Below are positions 7,925-21,252 of a DNA stretch of 64,000 nucleotides, in pieces; within the stretch, counting starts at the first letter, position 1; each line of letters begins with the position of its first letter. A model generated the notes under the pieces. The model was not told where the DNA came from. It worked only from the letters and a program-made list of their open reading frames with translations, and made no database searches. Location of the stretch: assembly GCA_039024635.1 (NCBI GenBank), contig JBCCQA010000001.1:206484-270483 (forward strand), written 5' to 3'. Position numbers and translations under genes: made by a program. Origin of the DNA: Myxococcota bacterium. Lineage in GTDB: Bacteria > Myxococcota > Kuafuiibacteriia > Kuafuiibacteriales > Kuafuiibacteriaceae.

Positions 7925-9442
7925 ATGCAGGCACGTGGCTTCCAGACGGTGGTGGTTGGCGCCGGGACTGCCGGCGCCGTCGTCGCGAGCCGACTCAGTG
8001 AAGACGGGGGCCAAGAGGTCTTGCTCCTCGAGGCAGGGCCGGACTACGGGCCGACCCGAGCCATCCCCAAGGATCTTGCCGATGGGGCTCGGAACTCGCT
8101 TTTCATGCACGACTGGGGACTGAGACACCGACCGACCAAGTCGCATTTCAAGTTTCGGTACCCGCGAGGTCGCGTCATGGGCGGCTCCTCGGCCGTGAAC
8201 ACCTGCATCGCCCTTCGAGGTCGACCCGAAGACTTCGAAGAGTGGGCGAGCTTCGATCTGCCCGAGTGGCGCTGGGAGCACTGCCTGCCCTACTTCAAGA
8301 AGCTGGAGAAGGACCTCGACTTTGACGACGACTTCCACGGAAAGGATGGGCCTCTTCCCATCCGTCGCCATACACCGGACGAACTCGTTCCCTGGCAGGC
8401 GGGTTTCATGGAAGGCTGCGACAAGCTCGGCCAACCGAAATGCCCCGACCACAACCACCCGAGCGACTACGGGTACGGCCCCCACGCGATGAACAAGATC
8501 GAGGGTCGTCGCATCAACGCGGCCGAGGCCTACCTTCCGGCCAGCGTTCGCGCCCGCCCCAACCTTCGCGTCATGGGCGAAGCTCTGGTCCGTCGCATCC
8601 TCTTCAGAGGACGCAAGGTCGTCGGCCTGGAGTTCGAGCGCTTCGGCAAGATCGAAACCGTGTCCACGGACCGCGTGGTGCTGGCCGCCGGCGCCATCGC
8701 GACACCCGGTCTCCTCCTCCGTTCGGGAGTGGGGCCCAAGCGAGAGCTGGAGCGCCTCGGGGTCGAGCCGGTCGCCGACAACAAGGGTGTAGCCAGCCGT
8801 CTGTTCGATCACCCGGGTTCGGCCCTGATGTTCATCGCTCGACCCGGGATCTCGAAGAAAGAGGACCCCCTCATCCAAACCCTGCTGCGCTTCAAGGCCT
8901 CCGTTGGCGCCCCCTGGGACGACATGCAGGTCCAGCCTGCTTCGACCATGCCCCTAAAGTTCATGGCGGGCTATGGACTCGGCATCCTCGTTCCGCTCTG
9001 TAAGCCACGCAGCGTGGGTTCCATTCATTGGACCTCTGCCGACCCCAAGGCGAAGCCCGTGATTCGGTCACGCTTCTTCGATGATCCTGTGGACCTGGAT
9101 CAGATGGTAGAGGGGCTCCAGATGGGTCTGGAGGTCTACCAGGCCTCGTCGATGCGGGACATGGGATCGCCCTTCCTGCCTCGTCGGAGCAGCTGGACGA
9201 AAGAGGGCCTGGCCGAGCACGCCCGTAAGGTGTGCGACTCCGGATATCACCCCTGCGGGACGGTCCCGATGGGTCCGGAGTCTTGGGCGGCCTGCGATTC
9301 CCATGGTCGAGTTCGAGGCGTGGACGGTTTGGTGGTTGCAGACGCCAGCCTGATGCCCACAATCACCAGCAGCAATACCAACGTCACCATCTTCATGATG
9401 GGCGAACGCATCGCCGATTGGATCAAGGCTGGCGAAGCCTGA
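7925..9442 (+). CDS. GMC family FAD-dependent oxidoreductase (choline dehydrogenase-like)
   Basis: An N-terminal Rossmann motif [19 protein letters not shown], a [11 protein letters not shown] signature and a C-terminal HPCGTVPMG active-site region are all present. Confidence 0.8.
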
Positions 9443-9512
9443 GCTCCGATCATTTAATGACGACGAATCACTGAGGGGCCCACTCTCGGATCCGAACTGC
9501 TAGGCTCGTACG

Positions 9513-12500
9513 GTGCGTCGGGCCCCGCTGCTGTTGTTGAGCCTGGCCGCCTGCACCGGACGATCGGGTCCGACGGGTCTGGCCAGCGACTGCCTGGATG
9601 ATGCGAGCTGTCTTTGCGTGAGCGGCGACGACTGTCCGCCCGGCCTGTCCTGCGTCGACGGTCGCTGTGCTGACCTGAGCCAGGTGACGGGCCCGGCGAG
9701 CTTCGGGACCATCTGCCAGGAGGACGAGGACTGCCGCAGCGGCTTGTGCGCGCCGTCGGGGGACGGAAGCTACGGACGCTGCACCGTGAGCTGCGAGGTC
9801 GGCTGCCCCGGAGGGACGCGCTGCGGCTTCGACGGAACACGCTTTCTCTGCGTTGAAGATCGCTTCAGCCTTTGCCTTCTCTGCCAAGACGACTTGGATT
9901 GCCATCCAGCCGGGACCGATCGCTGCGTAGACGGTCGGTGTGCCCAAGGCTGTCCCGAGGGCGGATGTCCAGAAGGCTACGCGTGCGGCGAGGCTAGCCA
10001 GTGCATCCCCCTCGACGGCGATTGCTCATGTCGGCCCGGGAGCGCAGATCGACAGCAGGCCTGCCGCGATGGGACCGGGGCCTGCTTGGGCAGGCAGACT
10101 TGCGGCGTCGGCGGAGGACTGGGGGCCTGCGACGCGCCCGCCCCTGCAGCCGAAGTCTGTAGCGGCGCGGACGAGGACTGCGACGGCCGGGTCGACGAGG
10201 AGGACCCGGACCTCGACACCGCGCCCGCTCCCGGTTACCCGGCTTGTCAAATCGGGGTTGCGTCGGGCTGCGAGGGGAGCTGGAGCTGTCGCGACGAAGG
10301 CGAAGGCTTTGCCTTCGCCTGCGTGCCGCGAGCCCCCGAGATGGAACGCTGCGACGGCCTCGACAACGACTGTAGCGGGGGCGTGGACGAGCCCTTCCGA
10401 AATCCCGACGGCGTCTACGACCAGCCCGAGCATTGCGGTGGATGTGGCAACGACTGTCGCAGCGTTCTCAGCGATCTCGCCGTAGATGAGATGGGCGAGG
10501 TGCGGACGGACGCCGCTGTCTGTGATCTCGGGGTCTGCCGCCCCTCCGTTTGCCGACCTGGCTTCACGCCCTTTCCCGAGGGGCAGGCAGTGGCCTGCGT
10601 TCCCGCGGCCACGGTGCAGTGCCAGGCTTGTGGCGACGACGACGACTGTCGCTTTGCCGACAACCGCTGTCTGGATCAGGGCGCCCTCGAGGGCGGGGCC
10701 TGCGCCCAGGCCTGCGGAGTCGATGCGCCCTACCCGGGCTGCACCGGCGCCGAAGGTGTTCAGGACTGCTGCCCGGGGGGTTTTCTTTGCACCGGCGGTC
10801 TATGTCGTCCCAGCAGTGGCTCCTGCGGATGCACACAGGACCGTTTGGGCGCCACGCGACCCTGCTTCGTGTCTTTGGGCGATGGCGCCTGTCTGGGGCA
10901 GGAGTTGTGTCAGCTCGGTTCGGGGGGACCCGAGTGGTCGAGCTGCACCGCCGACGAGACTTCGGCCGAGGTTTGCGACGGGGCCGACAACGACTGCGAC
11001 GGCGTGGTGGACGACCCGTTTTTCGACCGCCAGGGCACCGGAACCTACGACGTGGACGCTCACTGCGGCCGCTGCTTCAGCAGCTGCCTAGAGCTGCCCA
11101 ACGCCGATGGCATCTGCGCGGCCGGTCCCGGAGGGCCAAGCTGCGCCATCGACCGCTGTCGGAGCGAACGATTCGTGGGCGCGGCCCTTTGTCGGCTCGA
11201 CACCGATTGTTCGCCGGGCTTTCGCTGCGACAGTCGCCACTTCATGTGCGTGCGGAGTTGCTCGAACGACGGCCAATGCCCGGACGGCGCCTGCGTCGAC
11301 GGACGATGTGGACGCCCCTGCGACGGAGACCTCGACTGTCCTGAAGACGGGATCAGCTGCGTAGATGGAGTCTGCGGGCGTCGCTTCGACTACGTCGACC
11401 TGGATGGGGCGGTCAGCGATGGCTGCGAGTGTCCGGCCGAAGACAACGGCGAGGACCTTCCGGATATCTTCGACGCTTTCCCTGTCGCGGGCGTCCCCAG
11501 CCGAGACGCCAACTGCGACGGTGTGGACGGGGTTGGGGCCCGGGCTCTCTTCGTTTCGGCGGCCTCGGCTTCATCCCGGGGTACCCGCATTGAGCCCTTC
11601 CGGACCCTGGCCGAAGCAATGGCGGCCTTCGACCCGGCTCGCCACGACTACGTACTGGTGGCGGCCGGTACCTACGTGGAGGCCGTTCGTATTACGGCGC
11701 CCATCTCTTTCTACGGAGGCTACGCACCGGACTTTCTGAGCCGCGACGTCGCGAGTTTCCCTTCCACCATCGCCCCCTTGACCGAGCAGTTGACCGGTTC
11801 CGCTTCGCTCGAAGTCGTCGACCCCGACGGTCCGGTCACGGTGGCCGGCTTCATCATCGAGGGCGTAGACCGTGGACGCCGAGCGGGGGCTGGGGGCAAT
11901 GGGGCCAACAGTGAAGCAGTATCGATGGTTCGAGTGGACGGCCGCGTCCGCCTCGTCAACAGCGTCATTCGGGCCGGTCGAGGTCAAGACGGCGGAACGG
12001 GAGTTCGAGGAAGTGAGGGCGCGGGTGGTGTTCGGGGCGGGGATGGCCGAGACGCCCGCGAGTGTGGGACTCCGGGCTGTCAGGCCGAGATCAACCGGGG
12101 GGGTGAAGCGGGAGTGGCGAGCTGCGGCGCCGGTGGTCGCGACGGCGCCGACGCCAATCCTGCTCTCCCCCAACAAGCCTATTCTGGGGCCGGTCTTGAC
12201 GGTCAAGGCGGCGTCAACGCTCGCTACCGCAACAACCTGAACCCCGGATTCGAGGACCTCTGCAAGTACGATTGCATCATCGCCGGCAACCTCGAGGGGG
12301 GAGACGCCCTGGACGGTGACAGCGGCAGTACGGGAACGGGGGGCGCTGGCTGTTCGGATTCTCTGGGGCGCTTCGTGGCCGGCGCCTGGACTCCCGAGGC
12401 AAGCTTTCCCGGTTCCTCTGGGTCGGCTGGCCAAGGCGGCGGCGGGGGAGGCGCCGGGGGCTGCGTCATCAATCAGAACGGCGTGGGCTGCTCGATCGGG

Positions 12501-13007
12501 AATCGAGTGGGGGACCTCGGCGCGTCGGGCGGAGGCGGGGGATCGGGCGGCTGCGGCGGAGAAGGGGGGCGTCGGGGCGGAAGCGGCGGTGCCTCTTTCG
12601 GCATTGTGGTGGATATCTTCCCTTCAGACTCTCCCCCAGTCATCAGGGGCAATCGGATCATCCTGGGGATCGGCGGCGACGGCGGCGACGGCGGCGATGG
12701 AGGCGGGGGCGGCGGTGGTGGCCCTGGCGGCGCGGGCGGTATCGCCCAGTCCCCTTCCTGGTGCGCGGGCTACGGAGGTGCCGGCGGTCGAGGCGGTAGC
12801 GGCGGAAGCGGGGGCGGCGGAGGCGCCGGGTGTGGCGGCTTGGCCTTTGGCCTGGTGGGTCTGGCGGCAGAGGACTTCGCCGCCGACAACGACTTCGTGG
12901 GCCAGGCCCGGGCTGGTCTGGGAGGACGAGGTGGACAATCCGGAAGCGTCGGTACCACCGGCGAGGACGGGGCTGATGGTCTGGCCGGTCCCTGGAGGAA
13001 CCTGTAG
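9513..13007 (+). CDS. Giant secreted lipoprotein: Cys-rich MopE-like repeats, a putative right-handed beta-helix segment and a long Gly-rich C-terminal tract
   Basis: The lipobox is LLLSLAAC. There are three or more copies of C-x-G-x-D-(N/E)-D-C-(D/S)-G-x-(V/I)-D-(E/D) (CSGADEDCDGRVDEE, CDGLDNDCSGGVDE, CDGADNDCDGVVDD). A middle segment (YVLVAAGTYVEAV...) is beta-helix-like. Residues ~660-1160 are GGxGG-rich. Confidence 0.7.
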   Translation: MRRAPLLLLSLAACTGRSGPTGLASDCLDDASCLCVSGDDCPPGLSCVDGRCADLSQVTGPASFGTICQEDEDCRSGLCAPSGDGSYGRCTVSCEVGCPGGTRCGFDGTRFLCVEDRFSLCLLCQDDLDCHPAGTDRCVDGRCAQGCPEGGCPEGYACGEASQCIPLDGDCSCRPGSADRQQACRDGTGACLGRQTCGVGGGLGACDAPAPAAEVCSGADEDCDGRVDEEDPDLDTAPAPGYPACQIGVASGCEGSWSCRDEGEGFAFACVPRAPEMERCDGLDNDCSGGVDEPFRNPDGVYDQPEHCGGCGNDCRSVLSDLAVDEMGEVRTDAAVCDLGVCRPSVCRPGFTPFPEGQAVACVPAATVQCQACGDDDDCRFADNRCLDQGALEGGACAQACGVDAPYPGCTGAEGVQDCCPGGFLCTGGLCRPSSGSCGCTQDRLGATRPCFVSLGDGACLGQELCQLGSGGPEWSSCTADETSAEVCDGADNDCDGVVDDPFFDRQGTGTYDVDAHCGRCFSSCLELPNADGICAAGPGGPSCAIDRCRSERFVGAALCRLDTDCSPGFRCDSRHFMCVRSCSNDGQCPDGACVDGRCGRPCDGDLDCPEDGISCVDGVCGRRFDYVDLDGAVSDGCECPAEDNGEDLPDIFDAFPVAGVPSRDANCDGVDGVGARALFVSAASASSRGTRIEPFRTLAEAMAAFDPARHDYVLVAAGTYVEAVRITAPISFYGGYAPDFLSRDVASFPSTIAPLTEQLTGSASLEVVDPDGPVTVAGFIIEGVDRGRRAGAGGNGANSEAVSMVRVDGRVRLVNSVIRAGRGQDGGTGVRGSEGAGGVRGGDGRDARECGTPGCQAEINRGGEAGVASCGAGGRDGADANPALPQQAYSGAGLDGQGGVNARYRNNLNPGFEDLCKYDCIIAGNLEGGDALDGDSGSTGTGGAGCSDSLGRFVAGAWTPEASFPGSSGSAGQGGGGGGAGGCVINQNGVGCSIGNRVGDLGASGGGGGSGGCGGEGGRRGGSGGASFGIVVDIFPSDSPPVIRGNRIILGIGGDGGDGGDGGGGGGGGPGGAGGIAQSPSWCAGYGGAGGRGGSGGSGGGGGAGCGGLAFGLVGLAAEDFAADNDFVGQARAGLGGRGGQSGSVGTTGEDGADGLAGPWRNL

Positions 13008-15866
13008 ATGACCGGCCATTGGGCATCCTGGGCCGGCTTGGCCTTCGCGCTGGGCTCGACCCTGCTCGCCTGCGGACGCACGCCTCTCGAGGTCGAGCCC
13101 TGCGTGGACGAGGTGTGTCCCTGCGTCTTCGATGAGGACTGTCCGTCCGACGAGTTCGTCTGCATCGACAACCAGTGTGTCCTTCGGGCCGACGTCCGGG
13201 ACTGCCTGGAGCGCGGCGCCAGCGAAGAGGTTTGCAACGGTCGAGACGACGACTGCGATGGCCTCATCGACGACGGCCTGGTGGCTAGGGCCTGCGAAGT
13301 CGAACAGGGGGCGCTCGTCTGTTCGGGCACTGAGCTCTGCGAGGGCGAGCGAGGCTGGGTCTGCGATGCGCCGGCGCCGAGCGAGGAAATTTGCGATGGC
13401 ATCGACAATGACTGTGACGGCGAGGCCGATGAGGGCTTCGTCGACGAGCAAGGCCGCTACAGCCAGGTGGCCCACTGCGGAGGCTGCGGTCGAGACTGCA
13501 CCGCCCTCATTCCCGGAGCGGTCGAGCTGGAGTGCCGAGACGAAGGATCTTGTACGGCTCTCTCTTGCGTCGACGGTCGGGTGCCGGCCCTCGACGGATC
13601 CCAGTGTCTGTTGCGACAGGATGGGCTCTGCGAGGCCTGCGGCGCCGGCAGCGATTGCCCACTTCCGGGAAGCGCCTGCCTGGATCTAGGAGAGGGTGAG
13701 TTCGCCTGCGGTCGCGCTTGTGGTCCGGCCGGTGATCCGGACGGCGACCTCGGCCCCTGCCCCGAAGGCTTCGACTGCATCTCCGGTCAGTGCCGTCCCA
13801 GCTCCGGCACCTGTCGCTGTGGTCCCGGCTCGGAAGGAGCGGTCCGGGCTTGCGCTGTCGACGTATGCGGGGGCTTCGAGGTCTGCGAAGCAGGCCCGAG
13901 CGGCTTCGCCTGGTCGAGCTGTGACATCAGCGCCAACATCGAGACCTGCGACGCTTTGGACAACGACTGCGACGGGAGAGTGGACGAGGACTTTCGGGAC
14001 GACGACGGGCGCTACGTATCGGATCAACACTGCGGAGCCTGTAACTCGGACTGTACGACTCGCTTCACAGTTGAAGACCATGCACTCGGCGCATGCGGCT
14101 TCGACGACGGCCGCCCCGAATGCGTCATCGCAGCGTGCGCCCGAGAGACGGTGGAGGGCGTCGATTTCGAGTTCGTAGACCTGAATGGATTGATCGATGA
14201 TGGCTGTGAGTGTCGTCGACGGGTCGGGGTCCAGGTCGATGCACCCGACGTGTTCGATGCTTTCCCAGACCTGGGGACCGCCTTCGACGACGCGGACTGC
14301 GACGGTGTCGATGGCGATCGAGAGCGTGCCGTTTTCGTGTCGGCTTCGGCACCGGCCGGCGGAGACGGGAGCCAGGGCGCGCCGCTTCGGGACCTGTCGG
14401 CGGGCTTGAGTGCGCTTCGGCAAGGCCAGGGTGACTACGTCTTGGTCGCCGAAGGCGTCTATGATGGTGGTGCTCAGCCTTGGACCCTCAGTGGAGGCGA
14501 CCGACTCTTCGGGGGCTACTCGACCGACTTCTTGCGTCGCGATGTGGTCCGCTTTGCGACCGCTCTCGTGGCGGCCAGCGAAGTGGCGGTGCGCGTCAGT
14601 CCCAGTGACGACGGACGAGTTTTGGACCTGGTGGGTTTTCGCATCCAGGGCGTGGCGTGGTCCGGTGCCGCAGGCCCGGGGGGAGACGGTCGGAACTCGG
14701 TAGCACTCCTCGTAGAGGGTGCGGACGAGAGCTTGCGCGTTGCCAACAACCTCATCGTTGCCGGCCAGGGCGAAGATGGGGCCCGAGGATCGTCGGGCTT
14801 CGACGGGGGGAATGGTCGCTCGGGTCGAGCCGGCATCGACCAGAGTCAACAATTCGCCCCCTGCACAAACGCCTTCACGACAGGGGGACAGGGTGGCCTC
14901 AACGCGAGCTGCGCCGTTGCAAACGGTCGGGACGGTGGTGATGCCGGCTGCCCGAGCTTTGACTTCGGAACCAACCCCGTTCGGGGCGGCCAGGCCGAGT
15001 TCCAGTCTCCAGTAGGTGGAGATGGTCTGGGTGGTTTTCACTGGAGCTACGACGACATAAGCGGTCCAGGCTGCAACCACATCACCGAGTCCGGCTTTCC
15101 TTCGGACTTTCAATCCAACAACGGTCAGGACGGCGCCGATGGGTCCGATGGCGGTCGGGGAAGTGACGGAGAGGGCTGCCGAGGATTGTTCTCAGCCGTC
15201 GAGGTGGGCACCCGACTGCTGGCTCCGACTCGAGGCAGCTCAGGTCGAAGCGGCGACGCCGGTGGAGGCGGCGGTGGCGGTGGAGCTGGCGGCGGAACGG
15301 CGGCCTTCCCCGCCGGCGGATGTCCACGCTTCGACCTTGGAAGTACGGGCGGTGGTGGTGGTGCCGGTGGTTGCGGCGGCGAGCCGGGCGGGGCCGGTGG
15401 GCCAGGCGGTCTGGCTGTCAGCCTAGCTCTCCGCACACCGTCGACGCTCGGGGGGGTGTTTGGGAATCGGCTCCTCCGCGGCGTTGGTGGTGCAGGAGGC
15501 AGCGGCGGCCGAGGCGGTGAAGGCGGTGTCGGAGGGCTGGGCGGAAGCGGTGGCCTGCCGACCTCCTTTGCCGGCTCCACTGGAGGACTGGGAGGCGATG
15601 GCGGAAACGGCGGGCCCGGCGGGACGGGCGGAGGTGGATGTGGAGGCTCCTCCATCGGTCGCCTCATCTTTGGCGACGCGTCTCTGCCTCCGACGGCTCT
15701 GCCGCCGGTCAACGCGGGGGCCGAGCTGGCGGGTCGAGGAGGCAGCGCCGACGCGCCTGAGGGCGAGGGCCAGGACGGCGAGGACTTCGAGCTTCTCCGG
15801 CTCGCCAGCTGTCAGAGCGACGACGACTGCGTGGGAGGCTGTTCCCAGGGCTTCTGTCTCCCCTAG
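13008..15866 (+). CDS. Paralogous giant secreted lipoprotein with the same Cys-rich MopE-like repeat / beta-helix-like / Gly-rich architecture
   Basis: The ATG immediately follows the stop of the preceding gene, and the lipobox is STLLAC. Repeats include CNGRDDDCDGLIDD, CDGIDNDCDGEADEGF and CDALDNDCDGRVDED. A conserved DADCDGVDG...AVFVSAS...DYVLVAEGVY segment matches its neighbour. A Gly-rich tail is followed by a final CQSDDDCVGGCSQGFCLP. Confidence 0.7.
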   Translation: MTGHWASWAGLAFALGSTLLACGRTPLEVEPCVDEVCPCVFDEDCPSDEFVCIDNQCVLRADVRDCLERGASEEVCNGRDDDCDGLIDDGLVARACEVEQGALVCSGTELCEGERGWVCDAPAPSEEICDGIDNDCDGEADEGFVDEQGRYSQVAHCGGCGRDCTALIPGAVELECRDEGSCTALSCVDGRVPALDGSQCLLRQDGLCEACGAGSDCPLPGSACLDLGEGEFACGRACGPAGDPDGDLGPCPEGFDCISGQCRPSSGTCRCGPGSEGAVRACAVDVCGGFEVCEAGPSGFAWSSCDISANIETCDALDNDCDGRVDEDFRDDDGRYVSDQHCGACNSDCTTRFTVEDHALGACGFDDGRPECVIAACARETVEGVDFEFVDLNGLIDDGCECRRRVGVQVDAPDVFDAFPDLGTAFDDADCDGVDGDRERAVFVSASAPAGGDGSQGAPLRDLSAGLSALRQGQGDYVLVAEGVYDGGAQPWTLSGGDRLFGGYSTDFLRRDVVRFATALVAASEVAVRVSPSDDGRVLDLVGFRIQGVAWSGAAGPGGDGRNSVALLVEGADESLRVANNLIVAGQGEDGARGSSGFDGGNGRSGRAGIDQSQQFAPCTNAFTTGGQGGLNASCAVANGRDGGDAGCPSFDFGTNPVRGGQAEFQSPVGGDGLGGFHWSYDDISGPGCNHITESGFPSDFQSNNGQDGADGSDGGRGSDGEGCRGLFSAVEVGTRLLAPTRGSSGRSGDAGGGGGGGGAGGGTAAFPAGGCPRFDLGSTGGGGGAGGCGGEPGGAGGPGGLAVSLALRTPSTLGGVFGNRLLRGVGGAGGSGGRGGEGGVGGLGGSGGLPTSFAGSTGGLGGDGGNGGPGGTGGGGCGGSSIGRLIFGDASLPPTALPPVNAGAELAGRGGSADAPEGEGQDGEDFELLRLASCQSDDDCVGGCSQGFCLP

Positions 15867-15935
15867 CTCTCATATCCGAAGTCTCTCGGCTGGCTTTTCG
15901 TTTCGTCCCTCGCTGAGGCCGTGCAGGCTTGTCCC

Positions 15936-16664
15936 ATGAAGGTCTTGGTGCAGGGCGCATCCCGGGGCATCGGGCTCGAATTCGTCCGGCAGCTCCTGGA
16001 TCGGGGTGAGGAGGTCATCGCCACGGCGAGGGCTCCCGACGCCTCGGATGGTCTAGCTCGGTTGGCGAACCGACGGCTCCGCCTGGAGCGCCTCGATGTG
16101 ACCGAGGAAGCGGATATCGCGCGCGTCGCCCAGGGGGTGGCCGACCGGGAAGGCCGCCTGGACATCCTCCTCAACGTGACGGGGATCCTTCATGGTCCAG
16201 GCATGAGACCCGAGAGAAGGCTCGAGGATCTGAGGCCCGAAAGTCTTCAGAAGGCCTTTGCCGTGAACGCCATCGGCCCCGCGCTCATGGGCAAGCACTT
16301 CCGAGACCTTCTTTGCCATGGCGAGCGAGCCGTCTTCGCCAGCCTCTCGGCCCGCATCGGAAGCATCGCCGACAACGGTCTCGGCGGCTGGTACGCCTAT
16401 CGTGCCTCCAAGGCTGCCCAGAATCAGTTCCTGAGAACCATGGCTCACGAGTTTCGGCGCAAGAGCCCCGAAGCCATCGTGGTTGCGCTCCACCCGGGTA
16501 CCGTCGACACCGAACTGTCCAAGCCCTTTCAGCGCTCGGTTCCGAAGCACGGTCTCTTCACCGTCGAGCGCGCCGCCCAGCAGCTCCTCGAGATCGTCGA
16601 CTCCCTTCGACCCAAGGAGAGTGGGGCCTTCTTCGCCTGGGACCGCCAACCCATCCCTTGGTGA
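15936..16664 (+). CDS. Short-chain dehydrogenase/reductase resembling the CsgA (C-signal) protein of Myxococcus
   Basis: It carries the Rossmann motif MKVLVQGASRGIG and the catalytic YAYRASKAA (YxxxK) motif, with a C-terminus ...ESGAFFAWDRQPIPW. This closely echoes the CsgA C-terminus (...GRFFDYQGTEVPW) and central AYRMSKAALN region as recalled from memory. Confidence 0.7.
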   Translation: MKVLVQGASRGIGLEFVRQLLDRGEEVIATARAPDASDGLARLANRRLRLERLDVTEEADIARVAQGVADREGRLDILLNVTGILHGPGMRPERRLEDLRPESLQKAFAVNAIGPALMGKHFRDLLCHGERAVFASLSARIGSIADNGLGGWYAYRASKAAQNQFLRTMAHEFRRKSPEAIVVALHPGTVDTELSKPFQRSVPKHGLFTVERAAQQLLEIVDSLRPKESGAFFAWDRQPIPW

Positions 16665-17881: not shown

Positions 17882-18955
17882 TCAGCTTGGTTTGGCTTCG
17901 GGGACGTAGCGTAGGCCAACCGTGCCGCCGACGGTCAGATCTTCGGTCAGGAAGTTGAGCTGGCCGAAGGCCTTGATGGGCCCGAGGTGGATTTGGACGC
18001 CGGTGATGATCCTGAAGAGGGCCTGGGTCGGCTCGCTTTGGTCATTGGCAGAGATGGAGACTGTTCCGATCTCTTCCTCGTCGAAGCCGCCGCCGTCTGC
18101 GAAGAGCGTGCTGTTGACGTTGCCGCTCAGCTCGGCGCCGCCGAGCTGGACGTCGACGCCGATGCCGCCGTAGAGGCCGAGGAAGTAGGCGATGCGCGCA
18201 CTCGTCGTGACCTCGAATGGAAAGGTGAGGGCGGTCTGTCGAAGTCGCAGCTCGGTTTCGTCCGGGGACGACGATGTGAGCAGACTGACTCCTTCGCCGA
18301 GAGCGGTATTGGTCTCGATGGCGCGCTCGGCTCGGAGGATCATCTCGGAGAACTCGATACCGGTCGTGAAGTCCAGGCCGCCCCAGAGCAAGGTCTTTCG
18401 CCCCAAGGGTTTGAGCAGCTTGAACTGGGAGTGAAAGCCAACGTTGTAGAAGTCACCGTCGTACTCGTCGATGCCCAGCTGGAAGCCGAGCCCGCTCAGG
18501 TACAGCGTCAGCCAGGGAGCGCCCTGCTCGGTGAAGTTGTAGCCCAGCATCAGGCTGGCCTGGGCGCCCACGCCGACAGGGACGGCTCGTTCGAAGTCGG
18601 CGAAGCTTATGGACTGCAAGTCGTCGATGTCGCTGTCGCCGGCGTCGAAGGCTCCGGACACCGCGAGCCCGAAGAGGAACCCCTTGGGTAGACTGGCGTA
18701 GTCGACGCCAATGCCCTTGTTGATCATGTTCTGGGCATTGGCCGAGAGCGTCAGGAACTGCTGGATGTCGGTAAGTCCGTAAAGGGCCCTGATCTGTTCG
18801 TCGATCAGGTTTTGGAGCTCTTCCGAGCTGACGTTGAGCTGGTTGGCAACCTGCTGGGCGCCAGGATTCAGCTGAATCTGGACGCTGGTGGTCTGGGCGA
18901 AGGCCGAAGTGCTTAGGCCGAGGCTCGCGAAGGCGAGAATGAAGCGCCGCATCAC
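17882..18955 (-). CDS. Secreted protein, probably an outer-membrane beta-barrel; function unknown
   Basis: The signal peptide is MMRRFILAFASLGLSTSAFAQ. The Gly/Leu/Thr-rich amphipathic pattern and C-terminal ...VGLRYVPEAKPS resemble OM proteins. No specific family was recognised. Confidence 0.4.
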   Translation of the reverse strand: MMRRFILAFASLGLSTSAFAQTTSVQIQLNPGAQQVANQLNVSSEELQNLIDEQIRALYGLTDIQQFLTLSANAQNMINKGIGVDYASLPKGFLFGLAVSGAFDAGDSDIDDLQSISFADFERAVPVGVGAQASLMLGYNFTEQGAPWLTLYLSGLGFQLGIDEYDGDFYNVGFHSQFKLLKPLGRKTLLWGGLDFTTGIEFSEMILRAERAIETNTALGEGVSLLTSSSPDETELRLRQTALTFPFEVTTSARIAYFLGLYGGIGVDVQLGGAELSGNVNSTLFADGGGFDEEEIGTVSISANDQSEPTQALFRIITGVQIHLGPIKAFGQLNFLTEDLTVGGTVGLRYVPEAKPS

Positions 18956-19032: not shown

Positions 19033-21252
19033 TCAAGGATCCGGGAGCTCGATCTGGGAGTTTCGGAAGGCGGGAATCCAGCGTTCGACCTCGCCATCCG
19101 GGGTTTCGGCTCTAAGGCTGACGAAGCGGTTGGGCACCGTCCGCTTCAGAGGCGCGCTGCCCTGCGGCTCGCCATCGATGAAGATCTCCCCTCGTGTGGG
19201 CCAGGTCACCTCGAGTTCGACCTCGGTCGCCGGGCTGCGTCGGGGCAGGCTGAGGCGAGGGGTCGCGCCCGGGGACGGGCAGTCCACCACCCAAGCCCCC
19301 CGACCGACTTCCGCCACGAGGAGGGCTGCGCCGCGAAAGGACCAGATCTCGTCCCCATCCGCGTTGGAGCTCCGCTCGGCGCTCCCCGCCACTGGCGAGA
19401 GTTGGACGCCGGCGGGTCGCCGGATCTCGACGGAGCAGGCCGTCTCCTCTTCGACTCGGGTCAGCTCCACCGACACCGTGCCCCGCTGGGGGAGCGGAAT
19501 CTGAGCCGGCACGTAGCCCGGCGCGGCGGCCACCAACTTCGGGAGCTCGGAGCCGGTCATGATGCGAGCCTGCCCGGCGCCGAGAAAGGTTCCGTCCTCC
19601 GAGCTGTAGAGACTGGCGTTCTCCGGCTTTACCTTCACCCAAACGTCCAAAGGCGGGCGCAGCATCTGGACCTCGGCTCGTTCTCGGGTCCGCTCGTCCT
19701 CGGTGGGTTGGGGGCCCAAGAACTCCGAGGCTACGAAGGTCGACAAGCCGGTCAAGAACAGACCGAGCGCGATGTAGAGCGGCGCCCGACTGCTCATCGT
19801 GACGTCGGGCAGCTCTTCGTCCTCTTCGTCCGAAGTCCCCCCGGCCCCTGGGGGAACCGCACCGGGAAGTACGTTTGGGTAGGGACCGGTCGTTGCCGGA
19901 AGAGAGCGGGGCGAAGGGGGGATGGGCTGAGGAAGGGCCGCCGGATACTGGGCGCGTCGTCGCGGCTCTGGGACCGGGCTTCCGCCTGGCGCCAAGGGGC
20001 GCGCGAGCTCGTTTCGGGTCGGGACCCTGACTCCGACGATGGTGCCTTCCGGACCTCCGTCGTTGGGCGCCCCACTGGGTCTGGGCACCAGGCCCGGAAC
20101 GCCGGTCTCCGTCTTGTCGAGCGGCCCGTCGCTCGGCGCCTCGACCCGAGTCTCCGCGTCTTCCGGAGGGCTGGAGCGCTTCACCCGGATCGTCTTCTCG
20201 CTGTCCCTGCCCTGAGGGCTGGGGACGATCTGGGTCTTGGCCGGCGCCACGGTGGCTTGGGTCTTCTCGTCGGGCTGATCCACGACCTCGGGGTCGTCGA
20301 GCGTGTGATCGGCGGTTGTCCAGGGCGTGCTCTCCCGAAGCATCTCTACGTCCAAGCCCGGACCCCGAGTCTCGACGATGGTCTGAGCCGAGGCGATCCG
20401 GGGACGGGAGAGGGTCTTGGAGCGCACGCCCAGCTGACCGGTGGCGTCCTTCTCTTCCAGCCACTCGATGGCCTCCCTGGCGCTTCCGTAGCCTTCGCCC
20501 GCCGGGGGCTTCTGGAAGCGTCGGATCATCTCGACCAGGGGCTCTGGGACCGACTCCAGTCGATGACCGATCTCCTCCAGACAGCGGCCGAGTCGGAACA
20601 GGTCCCCCTCGGGTCGGGCCAGAGGGCCCTCGGGTCGGATTTCAGGCCGAGCAAAGCGGGGGGGCGTCATCTCGTCGTCGCTCCACCGGGGGTCGACCAC
20701 GATGGGAAAGCCCATGAGGTGCACACCCCGTTCACCCTGGGTGGCGATCAAGGCTTCGCTGAGAAGTGGGTCACGACGTTTCTTCTCGTGCCGCCGGACG
20801 AGGCGCTCCAAGAGATCGTGGGCTAGGATCACGAGCTCGTCCGCTGCTTCGAGTTCGGGGCCGGAGGCGGCCAAGAGCGCCGCATCGGCTTCCCAAGGTA
20901 GGGCCCAGTACAGGGCGCTGCCGCCTTGGGCTCGCTCGCTCACCCCGTGATCAAGAAGCTCGGCATCGGGGTCGGGGGTCGACGCCGCCGTCAGCTGCTG
21001 GACGGACTGGGTGAACTTGACCCGGGCCTCGTCCTCGTGGGGCCGAGCGGGTCGCAGGTCGACGACTTGGAGCAGGGCCCGTGTCTTGCCCTGCTCGGCC
21101 TCATACAGATCGACCCCGGGTGCCCTAAGAAGGCGCCGGAGAACGCTCCACGGCCCCACCGACTCCAGCTCGGCGGCGCTGCCCATGGATCTCGGCGCGG
21201 GGATCAGGACGTCCCGGTCCGGTCCGGCAGGGCCCTTGGGATCGTCGGCCAC
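19033..21252 (-). CDS. Membrane-anchored protein-kinase-like protein (predicted pseudokinase) with a Pro-rich linker, one TM helix and a C-terminal extracytoplasmic domain
   Basis: The N-terminal ~270 aa are kinase-fold-like but lack the VAIK Lys, the HRDLKPxN and DFG motifs (PPRFARPEI replaces APE). A TM helix APLYIALGLFLTGLSTFVASEFL sits near residue 470. Confidence 0.4.
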   Translation of the reverse strand: MADDPKGPAGPDRDVLIPAPRSMGSAAELESVGPWSVLRRLLRAPGVDLYEAEQGKTRALLQVVDLRPARPHEDEARVKFTQSVQQLTAASTPDPDAELLDHGVSERAQGGSALYWALPWEADAALLAASGPELEAADELVILAHDLLERLVRRHEKKRRDPLLSEALIATQGERGVHLMGFPIVVDPRWSDDEMTPPRFARPEIRPEGPLARPEGDLFRLGRCLEEIGHRLESVPEPLVEMIRRFQKPPAGEGYGSAREAIEWLEEKDATGQLGVRSKTLSRPRIASAQTIVETRGPGLDVEMLRESTPWTTADHTLDDPEVVDQPDEKTQATVAPAKTQIVPSPQGRDSEKTIRVKRSSPPEDAETRVEAPSDGPLDKTETGVPGLVPRPSGAPNDGGPEGTIVGVRVPTRNELARPLAPGGSPVPEPRRRAQYPAALPQPIPPSPRSLPATTGPYPNVLPGAVPPGAGGTSDEEDEELPDVTMSSRAPLYIALGLFLTGLSTFVASEFLGPQPTEDERTRERAEVQMLRPPLDVWVKVKPENASLYSSEDGTFLGAGQARIMTGSELPKLVAAAPGYVPAQIPLPQRGTVSVELTRVEEETACSVEIRRPAGVQLSPVAGSAERSSNADGDEIWSFRGAALLVAEVGRGAWVVDCPSPGATPRLSLPRRSPATEVELEVTWPTRGEIFIDGEPQGSAPLKRTVPNRFVSLRAETPDGEVERWIPAFRNSQIELPDP

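Follow-up and report, generated by a model that had tools for sequence, protein, structure and literature searches.

Introduction

Several described systems share individual features with a pair of adjoining genes that we analysed in a Myxococcota bacterium: gene 1 (positions 9513..13007, + strand) and gene 2 (13008..15866, +), both located in a stretch of 64,000 nucleotides of contig JBCCQA010000001.1 (assembly GCA_039024635.1; positions 206,484 to 270,483 of the forward strand), hereafter the window. Each gene encodes a Cys-rich N-terminal part followed by a C-terminal head domain. The fold of the first part of the head resembles that of beta-helix surface proteins and enzymes (1ru4, PfbA, UpaB, and the DUF1565 or Leptospira LIC10774 type), but no named beta-helix family is matched significantly in sequence, only about one third of the head is canonical, and the remaining ~350 residues of triplet-glycine repeats have no counterpart in beta-helix structures. 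The PGRS domains of mycobacterial PE_PGRS proteins, predicted polyglycine-II sandwiches, are similar in that they carry GGX repeats in register, are modelled by AlphaFold as compact structures that are neither alpha nor beta, and are associated with the cell surface (PMC9436101, PMC10216338). However, the pair carries a Sec/lipoprotein signal and lacks both a PE domain and a type VII secretion context, and no homology to PE_PGRS proteins is shown; its triplet runs appear to be interleaved with beta-rungs, stapled by disulfides and conserved in length where PGRS domains show a high degree of polymorphism, and it belongs to Myxococcota rather than Actinomycetota. Period-3 glycine-rich motifs are also found in the PGII sandwich of the adhesin gp38 of phage S16 and T4-like phages (6f45), which acts as a distal binding tip, a role that the head of the pair may share, and in the polyproline-II (PPII) antifreeze protein of springtails (snow fleas; 7jjv). 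Besides beta-solenoids, these two are the only kinds of solved structure with a faint match to the model of the glycine-rich part.

Two further systems resemble other parts of the proteins. MopE of Methylococcus capsulatus (PF11617) has in common with the pair the 14-residue motif C-x-G-x-D-N-D-C-D-G-x-V-D-E, present three times per protein, but the likeness ends with this short motif and extends neither to MopE as a whole nor to the copper site of that protein. TraA and TraB of Myxococcus xanthus are likewise a co-transcribed two-gene surface pair with a Cys-rich stalk and a distal recognition domain (PMC13184517); TraA, however, is distinguished by a variable domain of PA14-like type and a MYXO-CTERM sorting tag, and TraB is OmpA-like and not a paralogue, so that the likeness is an analogy only, with no sequence relation seen. 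By analogy, the glycine-rich part of the pair may work like the polyglycine-II (PGII)-type domains of PGRS, gp38 and the springtail antifreeze protein, although homology to these is not shown. The family is large and unnamed, and its composite architecture is probably novel.

We propose, at a probability of about 0.5, that the pair encodes an outer-membrane-anchored, probably heteromeric and non-enzymatic binding or structural head that would be carried on a stalk rigidified by disulfides and Ca2+. Folded PGII-type domains are rare: solved structures are limited to a handful of proteins (among them antifreeze proteins and the phage gp38 tip), and for PE_PGRS proteins the existence of such domains is disputed.

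Results

The C-terminal heads of the two proteins are paralogous over their entire length. The last 544 residues of gene 1 and the last 572 of gene 2 aligned end to end with few gaps and 39% identity (E 5e-108) when BLASTP was run without composition adjustment; with the default adjustment only the Cys-rich N-terminal parts were aligned. In gene 1, a canonical right-handed beta-helix segment (residues 675-815; 11535..11957, +) consists of an N-terminal cap (FVSA...G...P..T...A) and approximately six rungs, with the motifs G-x-Y-x-E and GGY-x-x-DF-x-x-RD. It is followed by a triplet-glycine domain that extends to the C-terminus (residues 816-1164; 11958..13004, +) and was recognised from AlphaFold2 confidence (pLDDT, predicted local distance difference test), glycine periodicity, the ratio of nonsynonymous to synonymous substitution rates (dN/dS) and Cys co-occurrence. 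The collinear beta-helix segment of gene 2 (residues 435-580; 14310..14747, +; family profile A2, E 2e-59) precedes a triplet-glycine domain of its own (residues 581-934; 14748..15809, +) and a C-terminal Cys knot, CQSDDDCVGGCSQGFCLP (15810..15863, +), that is specific to copies of the downstream type. The conserved blocks quoted in the original prediction were found in place, reading DANCDGVDG...ALFVSAASA...DYVLVAAGTYVEAV in gene 1 and DADCDGVDG...AVFVSASAP...DYVLVAEGVY in gene 2. Glycine makes up 27-47% of each 100-residue block in the last ~350 residues of gene 1 and 19-41% in those of gene 2. Short hydrophobic strands punctuate the glycine runs, and the two proteins share their order (e.g. 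SFGIVVDI and RIILGI in gene 1 vs LAVSLAL and RLLRGV in gene 2), which is not the behaviour of a low-complexity spacer.

AlphaFold2 models of the heads of gene 1 and gene 2 had pLDDT values of 93 and 88.6, and structure prediction thus did not return disorder alone. The models superposed with significant scores on solved right-handed parallel beta-helices, in line with the beta-helix-like core suggested earlier. The S. pneumoniae adhesin PfbA (3zpp, 4mr0), the autotransporter UpaB (6bea) and pertactin were among the fold matches, and pectate lyase Pel9A (1ru4) also belongs to the closest described structures. At the sequence level, PF11617 was matched above the Pfam cut-off, and neither protein matched a named beta-helix family (Beta_helix, DUF1565, NosD, Pectate_lyase_3, Pectinesterase) in Pfam at E <= 1. 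A sequence-profile search of the PDB returned only GGGGS-linker artefacts and sub-threshold matches to pectinesterase (E 0.0075) or xylosidase. In the triplet-glycine region of gene 1, pLDDT was mostly 90-98, and DSSP assigned most residues to neither helix nor strand ('other').

For the glycine-rich part no solved analogue was found, the faint matches being confined to 7jjv, 6f45, the Pam3 fibre and beta-solenoids, and no solved PGII/PPII bundle was significantly similar to the model in structure. Its best Foldseek match was the springtail antifreeze protein 7jjv, a bundle of nine PPII helices, at a non-significant level (E 0.26; template-modelling (TM) score 0.09-0.20). Together with the GXX/GGX periodicity this match would fit a flat triplet-glycine surface that binds a periodic lattice such as ice, mineral, cellulose or chitin, in the way that the springtail protein binds ice. 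Both the E-value and the TM score speak against such a role, however, and members of the family come from rumen, wastewater and groundwater metagenome-assembled genomes (MAGs), so that a cold-specific function is unlikely; lattice binding is in our estimate very improbable.

A further interpretation of the beta-helix is that the proteins are surface-anchored carbohydrate-active enzymes (polysaccharide lyase, hydrolase, esterase or epimerase) whose substrates would be exopolysaccharide or the glycans of prey, with a catalytic beta-helix and the glycine-rich part as an accessory. Enzymes of this kind typically have the fold, but it is also that of the adhesins PfbA, UpaB and pertactin, which are themselves among the fold matches, and the segment has only about six canonical rungs. 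No enzyme family of Pfam or NCBIfam was matched by the two proteins, and 58 aligned family members yielded a single weak match to DUF1565 (E 0.002) and none to any other named beta-helix family. The conserved non-glycine columns, which include V61, P75, V96, A97, Y101, E103, L107, Y117, F121, R124, F160 and N197, correspond mostly to hydrophobic core or Asn-ladder positions; polar and charged residues among these named columns are E103 and R124 only (judged as sequence columns), and no cluster of Asp, Lys and Arg was seen. As no beta-helix enzyme family was matched and no conserved catalytic cluster was seen, a binding or structural role is favoured over catalysis, and the glycan-active enzyme put forward in the original prediction appears unlikely.

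AlphaFold2 can give over-confident, solenoid-like models for repetitive sequences. We therefore sought independent evolutionary evidence that the glycine-rich domain is folded. Synteny with the window was seen at a second locus, L081 (genes for 5'-nucleotidase, HEAT protein and GMC oxidoreductase, then the pair, short-chain dehydrogenase/reductase (SDR), MalQ and PDH-E1), which provided orthologues of gene 1 (1161 aa, 72% identical, no internal stops) and gene 2 (945 aa, 75% identical), with dN/dS of 0.14 and 0.12, respectively. In the glycine-rich parts dN/dS was 0.11, and it ranged from 0.11 to 0.14 in every region, the ratios being approximate given that dS was near saturation. Only 3 and 9 gap positions occurred in these alignments of more than 900 residues. 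Both genes, their glycine-rich parts included, are under purifying selection. The distance from the profile start to the C-terminus was also confined to a narrow range across 48 loci, at 526-560 aa for upstream (U) copies and 558-598 aa for downstream (D) copies.

The placement of glycine within the domain is equally constrained. Across the family, glycine conservation had a period-3 power of 55 times the median, a value reached by 0 of 2000 shuffles; no period-2 signal was present, and within the canonical beta-helix segment period 3 was absent too. The repeats keep a strict register, as GXX in runs 202-225, 309-324, 344-353 and 515-536 and as GGX in runs 434-452 and 468-486 (g1c numbering, also used for the Cys residues below), and dozens of glycine positions are invariant or nearly so. 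Cys327 and Cys487, 160 residues apart and both within glycine runs, co-occur with a phi of 0.91 (both present in 188, both absent in 87 and unpaired in 11 of 286 non-redundant domains), and co-variation was further seen for Cys231-Cys301 and Cys301-Cys464. In the family consensus a unit occurs three times that reads S-h-x-h-h-h ... N-x-h-x-x-G-x-GG-x-GG and then (GXX/GGX)n, which we read as beta-helix rungs that would each continue into a long triplet-glycine excursion. Glycine in register at period 3 is the signature of polyglycine-II and polyproline-II helices, as in PGRS (PMC9436101), and on this ground we infer PGII-type helices for the triplet-glycine domain; most likely they pack on the remaining beta-rungs and are locked by long-range disulfides. 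Tandem-repeat arrays at the DNA level did not exceed 61 nt, and a recent microsatellite expansion was accordingly rejected as the origin of the glycine-rich region. An RTX or beta-roll assignment was discarded as well, there being no HemolysinCabind match and a glycine periodicity of 3, not 9.

These data bear on the possibility that the glycine-rich region is a flexible or disordered spacer or a phase-separating tail, and that its model is an artefact of AlphaFold2 over-confidence. The high glycine content, the scarcity of regular DSSP structure, the lack of a solved analogue and the tendency of the method towards invented solenoids would all be in keeping with this. Such a tail is nevertheless hard to reconcile with a dN/dS of 0.11 and almost no insertions or deletions relative to the 72-75% identical orthologues, with the tight conservation of domain length, with near-invariant glycines in strict register, with conserved hydrophobic strands between them, with the coupling of Cys327 to Cys487, and with the shortness of the DNA repeats; we consider disorder improbable. 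Conversely, that the head consists of a beta-helix plus a folded triplet-glycine domain is highly probable. Of the tail described earlier as 300-500 residues of low-complexity sequence, the richness in glycine stands, but the region spans ~350-370 residues and is conserved and predicted to be folded.

The head belongs to a large family. A homologue search with residues 621-1164 of gene 1, in which only the 8000 candidates with the most shared words were scored, returned at least 550 proteins at E <= 1e-5, the best of them 51% identical; almost all came from Myxococcota or 'Deltaproteobacteria' MAGs and were named 'hypothetical' or 'MopE-related'. An exhaustive profile search over 1.84 billion representatives at 50% identity gave 22,690 matches at E <= 1e-3, of which 3,856 had E <= 1e-30. 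The 150 matches listed had lengths between 593 and 4,398 aa, and in nearly all of them the whole domain was C-terminal. Neither Pfam nor NCBIfam has a model for the domain (NCBIfam gave one sub-threshold match only), PHROGs gave no match, and no description of the family was found in the literature, in agreement with the earlier view that such proteins are essentially uncharacterised. The modules N-terminal to the domain vary: in the 58 aligned members they comprised the MopE motif (25/58) as well as EGF, cadherin-like, Big_6, Big_13 and Ig-like modules. Since the MopE motif is missing from more than half of the sampled members (33/58), it does not define the family. A recognisable lipobox was present in 53 of 105 Met-initiated members.

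Some members stand out in size, name or origin. The giant members (P0135 with 4398 aa, P0138, P0147 and P0260) contain up to 41 profile-matched stretches (Cys-rich/MopE repeats), and in those with a reported full-domain match the beta-helix/triplet-glycine domain is still at the extreme C-terminus. A 150-aa fragment of the family (P0122, MBP7126951.1, in the cluster of P0070) is named 'PE family protein [Myxococcota bacterium]' by NCBI, a label that looks like an artefact of PGRS-like glycine-rich composition. For the pair itself, membership of PE_PGRS was rejected, given no match to PE (PF00934), a lipoprotein N-terminus and relatives in Myxococcota. Members from Candidatus Sigynarchaeum springense and relatives (Asgard archaea; P0083, P0120) have an N-terminal transmembrane helix but no lipobox and no Cys-rich stalk; horizontal transfer might explain them, or the domain may have originated earlier. 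Members from ruminant-gut MAGs (L014, L017, L032) come from an unexpected habitat for Myxococcota-like genomes.

Conservation of the pair was evaluated by scanning species-representative genomes with a non-glycine pattern derived from an 8-sequence alignment. The scan yielded 391 relatives, from which 78 loci were kept, all in MAGs and labelled almost exclusively as Myxococcota, Myxococcales or Deltaproteobacteria (including Polyangia, Sandaracinaceae and Bradymonadales). Two same-strand copies ~3.3 kb apart were present at 48 of the 50 informative loci, i.e. those with at least 4.2 kb on either side of the match. The nearest neighbour of each U copy was a U copy (48/48) and that of each D copy a D copy (48/48), with mean identities of 0.51 for U-U, 0.49 for D-D and 0.39 for U-D. 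U and D copies thus form separate clades, indicating that the duplication predates the diversification of these lineages and that gene order was kept thereafter. It is almost certain that the pair is conserved and ordered across Myxococcota, and the synteny survey suggested earlier therefore revealed an ancient, ordered A-B unit rather than a recent or simple duplication. The 952-aa orthologue of gene 2 in another genome (P0022) is also the second of a pair, and the only true singletons with full flanks, L017 (from a roe-deer omasum MAG) and L039, are both of U type.

The ends of the two copies also differ. A C-terminal Cys knot comparable to that of gene 2 occurs in 39 of the 42 complete D copies and was lacking in U copies. 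At 40 of the 48 pair loci (L003-L075) the U copy ends in Phe or Tyr (e.g. ...VESF, ...IHVY), an ending that recalls the beta-signal at the C-terminus of outer-membrane proteins; gene 1 of the window ends in ...WRNL (12990-13004).

That one copy is a decaying pseudogene, or that the pair is a recent lineage-specific duplication without joint function, could be argued from the paralogy of the genes and from locus L002, where the upstream copy is split into ORFs of 254 and 818 aa (9133-12457 of that locus). This is extremely improbable, however: both ORFs are intact in the window and in L081 with dN/dS of 0.12-0.14, the pair occurs at 48 of 50 loci, and its two members fall into separate clades. 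Given the 2.62x coverage of the L002 contig, the split there is probably an assembly or frameshift error and not a true pseudogene.

No neighbouring gene was shared by more than 13 of the 48 loci, and in the window the pair is flanked by unrelated metabolic genes. The two genes thus appear to constitute the whole unit, and a larger multi-gene system, of which the original prediction had seen signs in this content, was rejected.

Gene 1 encodes 1164 aa, with a GTG start and a TAG stop, and gene 2 encodes 952 aa from an ATG, as given by the ORF list and translation. The junction (12994..13010, +) has no spacer, as noted earlier: the TAG of gene 1 (13005-13007) abuts the ATG of gene 2 (13008-13010), and a GGAGGA Shine-Dalgarno sequence (12994-12999) lies within the 3' end of gene 1, 8 nt upstream of that ATG. 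Among 33 junctions resolved at other loci, 15 were TGATG overlaps and most others ranged from -4 to +4 nt. Overlapping or near-abutting junctions of this kind point to translational coupling, and the pair is most likely a translationally coupled two-gene operon. A sigma-70 promoter scan found 0 promoters, and a terminator scan found 2 terminator-like sites, both inside gene 1 and below the shuffle expectation.

Lipoprotein signals were recognised in both proteins, as anticipated. The putative signal peptide of gene 1, V/M-RRAPLLLLSLAA-C14 (9513..9554, +), ends in the lipobox LSLAA-C14 and would give a mature N-terminus C-T-G-R-S-G-P; that of gene 2, …GSTLLA-C22 (13008..13073, +), ends in STLLA-C22 and would leave C-G-R-T, most D copies reading ...AC|GRT.... 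Both satisfy the bacterial lipobox pattern [LVI][ASTVI][GAS]-C (SLAA-C14 and TLLA-C22), and lipoboxes are also present in U and D orthologues at other loci. In M. xanthus lipoproteins, Lys at +2 is an inner-membrane signal and Ala at +7 a matrix signal (PMC3222651). Neither residue was found at these positions in gene 1 or gene 2, so that by the M. xanthus rules the outer membrane is the default destination. An outer-membrane or surface location is accordingly predicted for both lipoproteins, and their dense disulfides would fit an extracytoplasmic location.

Between the lipid anchor and the head, each protein has a Cys-rich stalk. The stalk of gene 1 (residues 15-674; 9555..11534, +) has 9-16 Cys per 100-aa block and matches PF11617 (Cu-binding_MopE) with 40.1 bits; that of gene 2 (residues 23-434; 13074..14309, +) matches with 30.1 bits. 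Both scores are above the gathering score of 27 bits, with three stretches in each protein, and the MopE-type modules reported earlier are thereby confirmed. The regular expression C-x-G-x-D-[NDE]-D-C-[DS]-G-x-x-D-[ED] located three motifs per protein, at residues 216-229 (nt 10158-10199, +), 280-293 (nt 10350-10391, +) and 488-501 (nt 10974-11015, +) of gene 1, and at residues 76-89 (nt 13233-13274, +), 129-142 (nt 13392-13433, +) and 314-327 (nt 13947-13988, +) of gene 2. The stalk of gene 1 also holds C-x-x-D-x-D-C type knots and a D-G-C-E-C motif. With default composition adjustment, BLASTP aligned the stalk of gene 2 to residues ~199-565 of gene 1 (34% identity, E 1e-32), the alignment beginning at residue 199 of gene 1 and residue 15 of gene 2. 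Within residues 1-199 of gene 1 (window 9513-10110) there are ~185 extra Cys-rich residues without a counterpart in gene 2, and their knots (C-x-x-D-x-D-C...C-x-x-G-x-C) matched no Pfam or NCBIfam model.

The PF11617 matches, and the name 'MopE-related protein' that NCBI gives to relatives, might be taken to mean that these are MopE-like metal-binding matrix proteins, serving copper acquisition or handling with the motifs as functional sites. What is matched, however, is a 30-residue Cys/Asp motif, with the best stretches covering profile positions 14-30 only, while what the family conserves is its C-terminal domain, and the motif is missing from 33 of 58 members. The copper site of M. capsulatus MopE is reportedly formed by kynurenine (an oxidised Trp) and two His, and is said to lie outside the motif. 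The Asp-rich pattern (D-x-D-x-D-G-x-x-D) resembles the Ca2+-binding loop of thrombospondin type 3 repeats, in which we take its role to be structural, a resemblance that points to a stalk stiffened by Ca2+ and not to copper chemistry. We therefore regard a copper function as quite improbable, and the stalk motifs as probable binders of Ca2+.

Discussion

The overall reading to which we assign a probability of about 0.5 would work as follows. A lipid anchor at the N-terminus would hold each protein in the outer membrane, its default destination. From there a disulfide-rich stalk with Asp-rich motifs of MopE or thrombospondin type 3 character, probably binding Ca2+, would extend to a distal C-terminal head composed of a canonical beta-helix and then a GXX/GGX triplet-repeat domain with long-range disulfides. 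Given an N-terminal anchor and a conserved domain at the C-terminus, the head would be held away from the membrane on its stalk, as in an adhesin or receptor. The two copies, A and B, would act together, plausibly as a heteromer; as their distinctness, order and co-translation date from before the diversification of the family, a joint function is most likely. The head may serve as a surface binding or structural module, e.g. as an adhesin or a matrix- or ligand-binding head. The extracellular, adhesion-type N-terminal modules of other members were counted in favour of surface binding, and a role as putative adhesin or surface protein is the most plausible one.

Several points weigh against this reading. 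For every member of the family the support consists of sequence and predicted structure. AlphaFold2 over-confidence on repeats may extend to the heads, and the PGII geometry is deduced from periodicity, the DSSP class 'other' and faint fold matches. The pectin-lyase-type fold is common in carbohydrate-active enzymes, and R124 and E103 are conserved. The sorting rules of M. xanthus may fail to transfer to this lineage. Finally, although the proteins are a putative heteromer, L017 and L039 carry a U-type copy only.

A more specific version is tentative and, on balance, doubtful: a composite fold in which the later rungs of a beta-helix sprout disulfide-stapled PGII helices to form a rigid, glycine-faced surface, displayed by an obligate A-B heteromer on a Ca2+/disulfide stalk, which would represent a new class of surface recognition or adhesion device. 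Were the folded PGII-type domain real, this large, constrained and disulfide-locked family (3,856 representatives at E <= 1e-30) would be a tractable, non-pathogenic system for studying PGII folding and binding, and would show that it is wrong to write off glycine-rich 'low-complexity' tails of bacterial surface proteins as disordered. Very large, coupled A-B surface lipoproteins that are near-universal in the surveyed Myxococcota loci (48/50) are candidates for a part in adhesion, matrix organisation, predation or kin contact. Because the labels 'MopE-related' and 'PE family protein' are misleading, the family deserves a Pfam or NCBIfam model.

Additional observations

Downstream of the pair, two genes between a glycosyltransferase and MalQ, encoding 739 aa (19033-21252, -) and 357 aa (17882-18955, -), have no Pfam match. 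At L081, the orthologue of the larger protein (728 aa) is also without a match, and that of the 357-aa protein matches PF28316 (Lsa36, a Leptospira surface-adhesin family). A local bump in GC skew (+0.13 to +0.15 at window positions 12001-16000, vs ~0 to 0.05 in most other intervals of the scan) coincides with the glycine-rich coding regions, whose GGN codons lie on the + strand, and thus appears to be compositional and not a replication signal.

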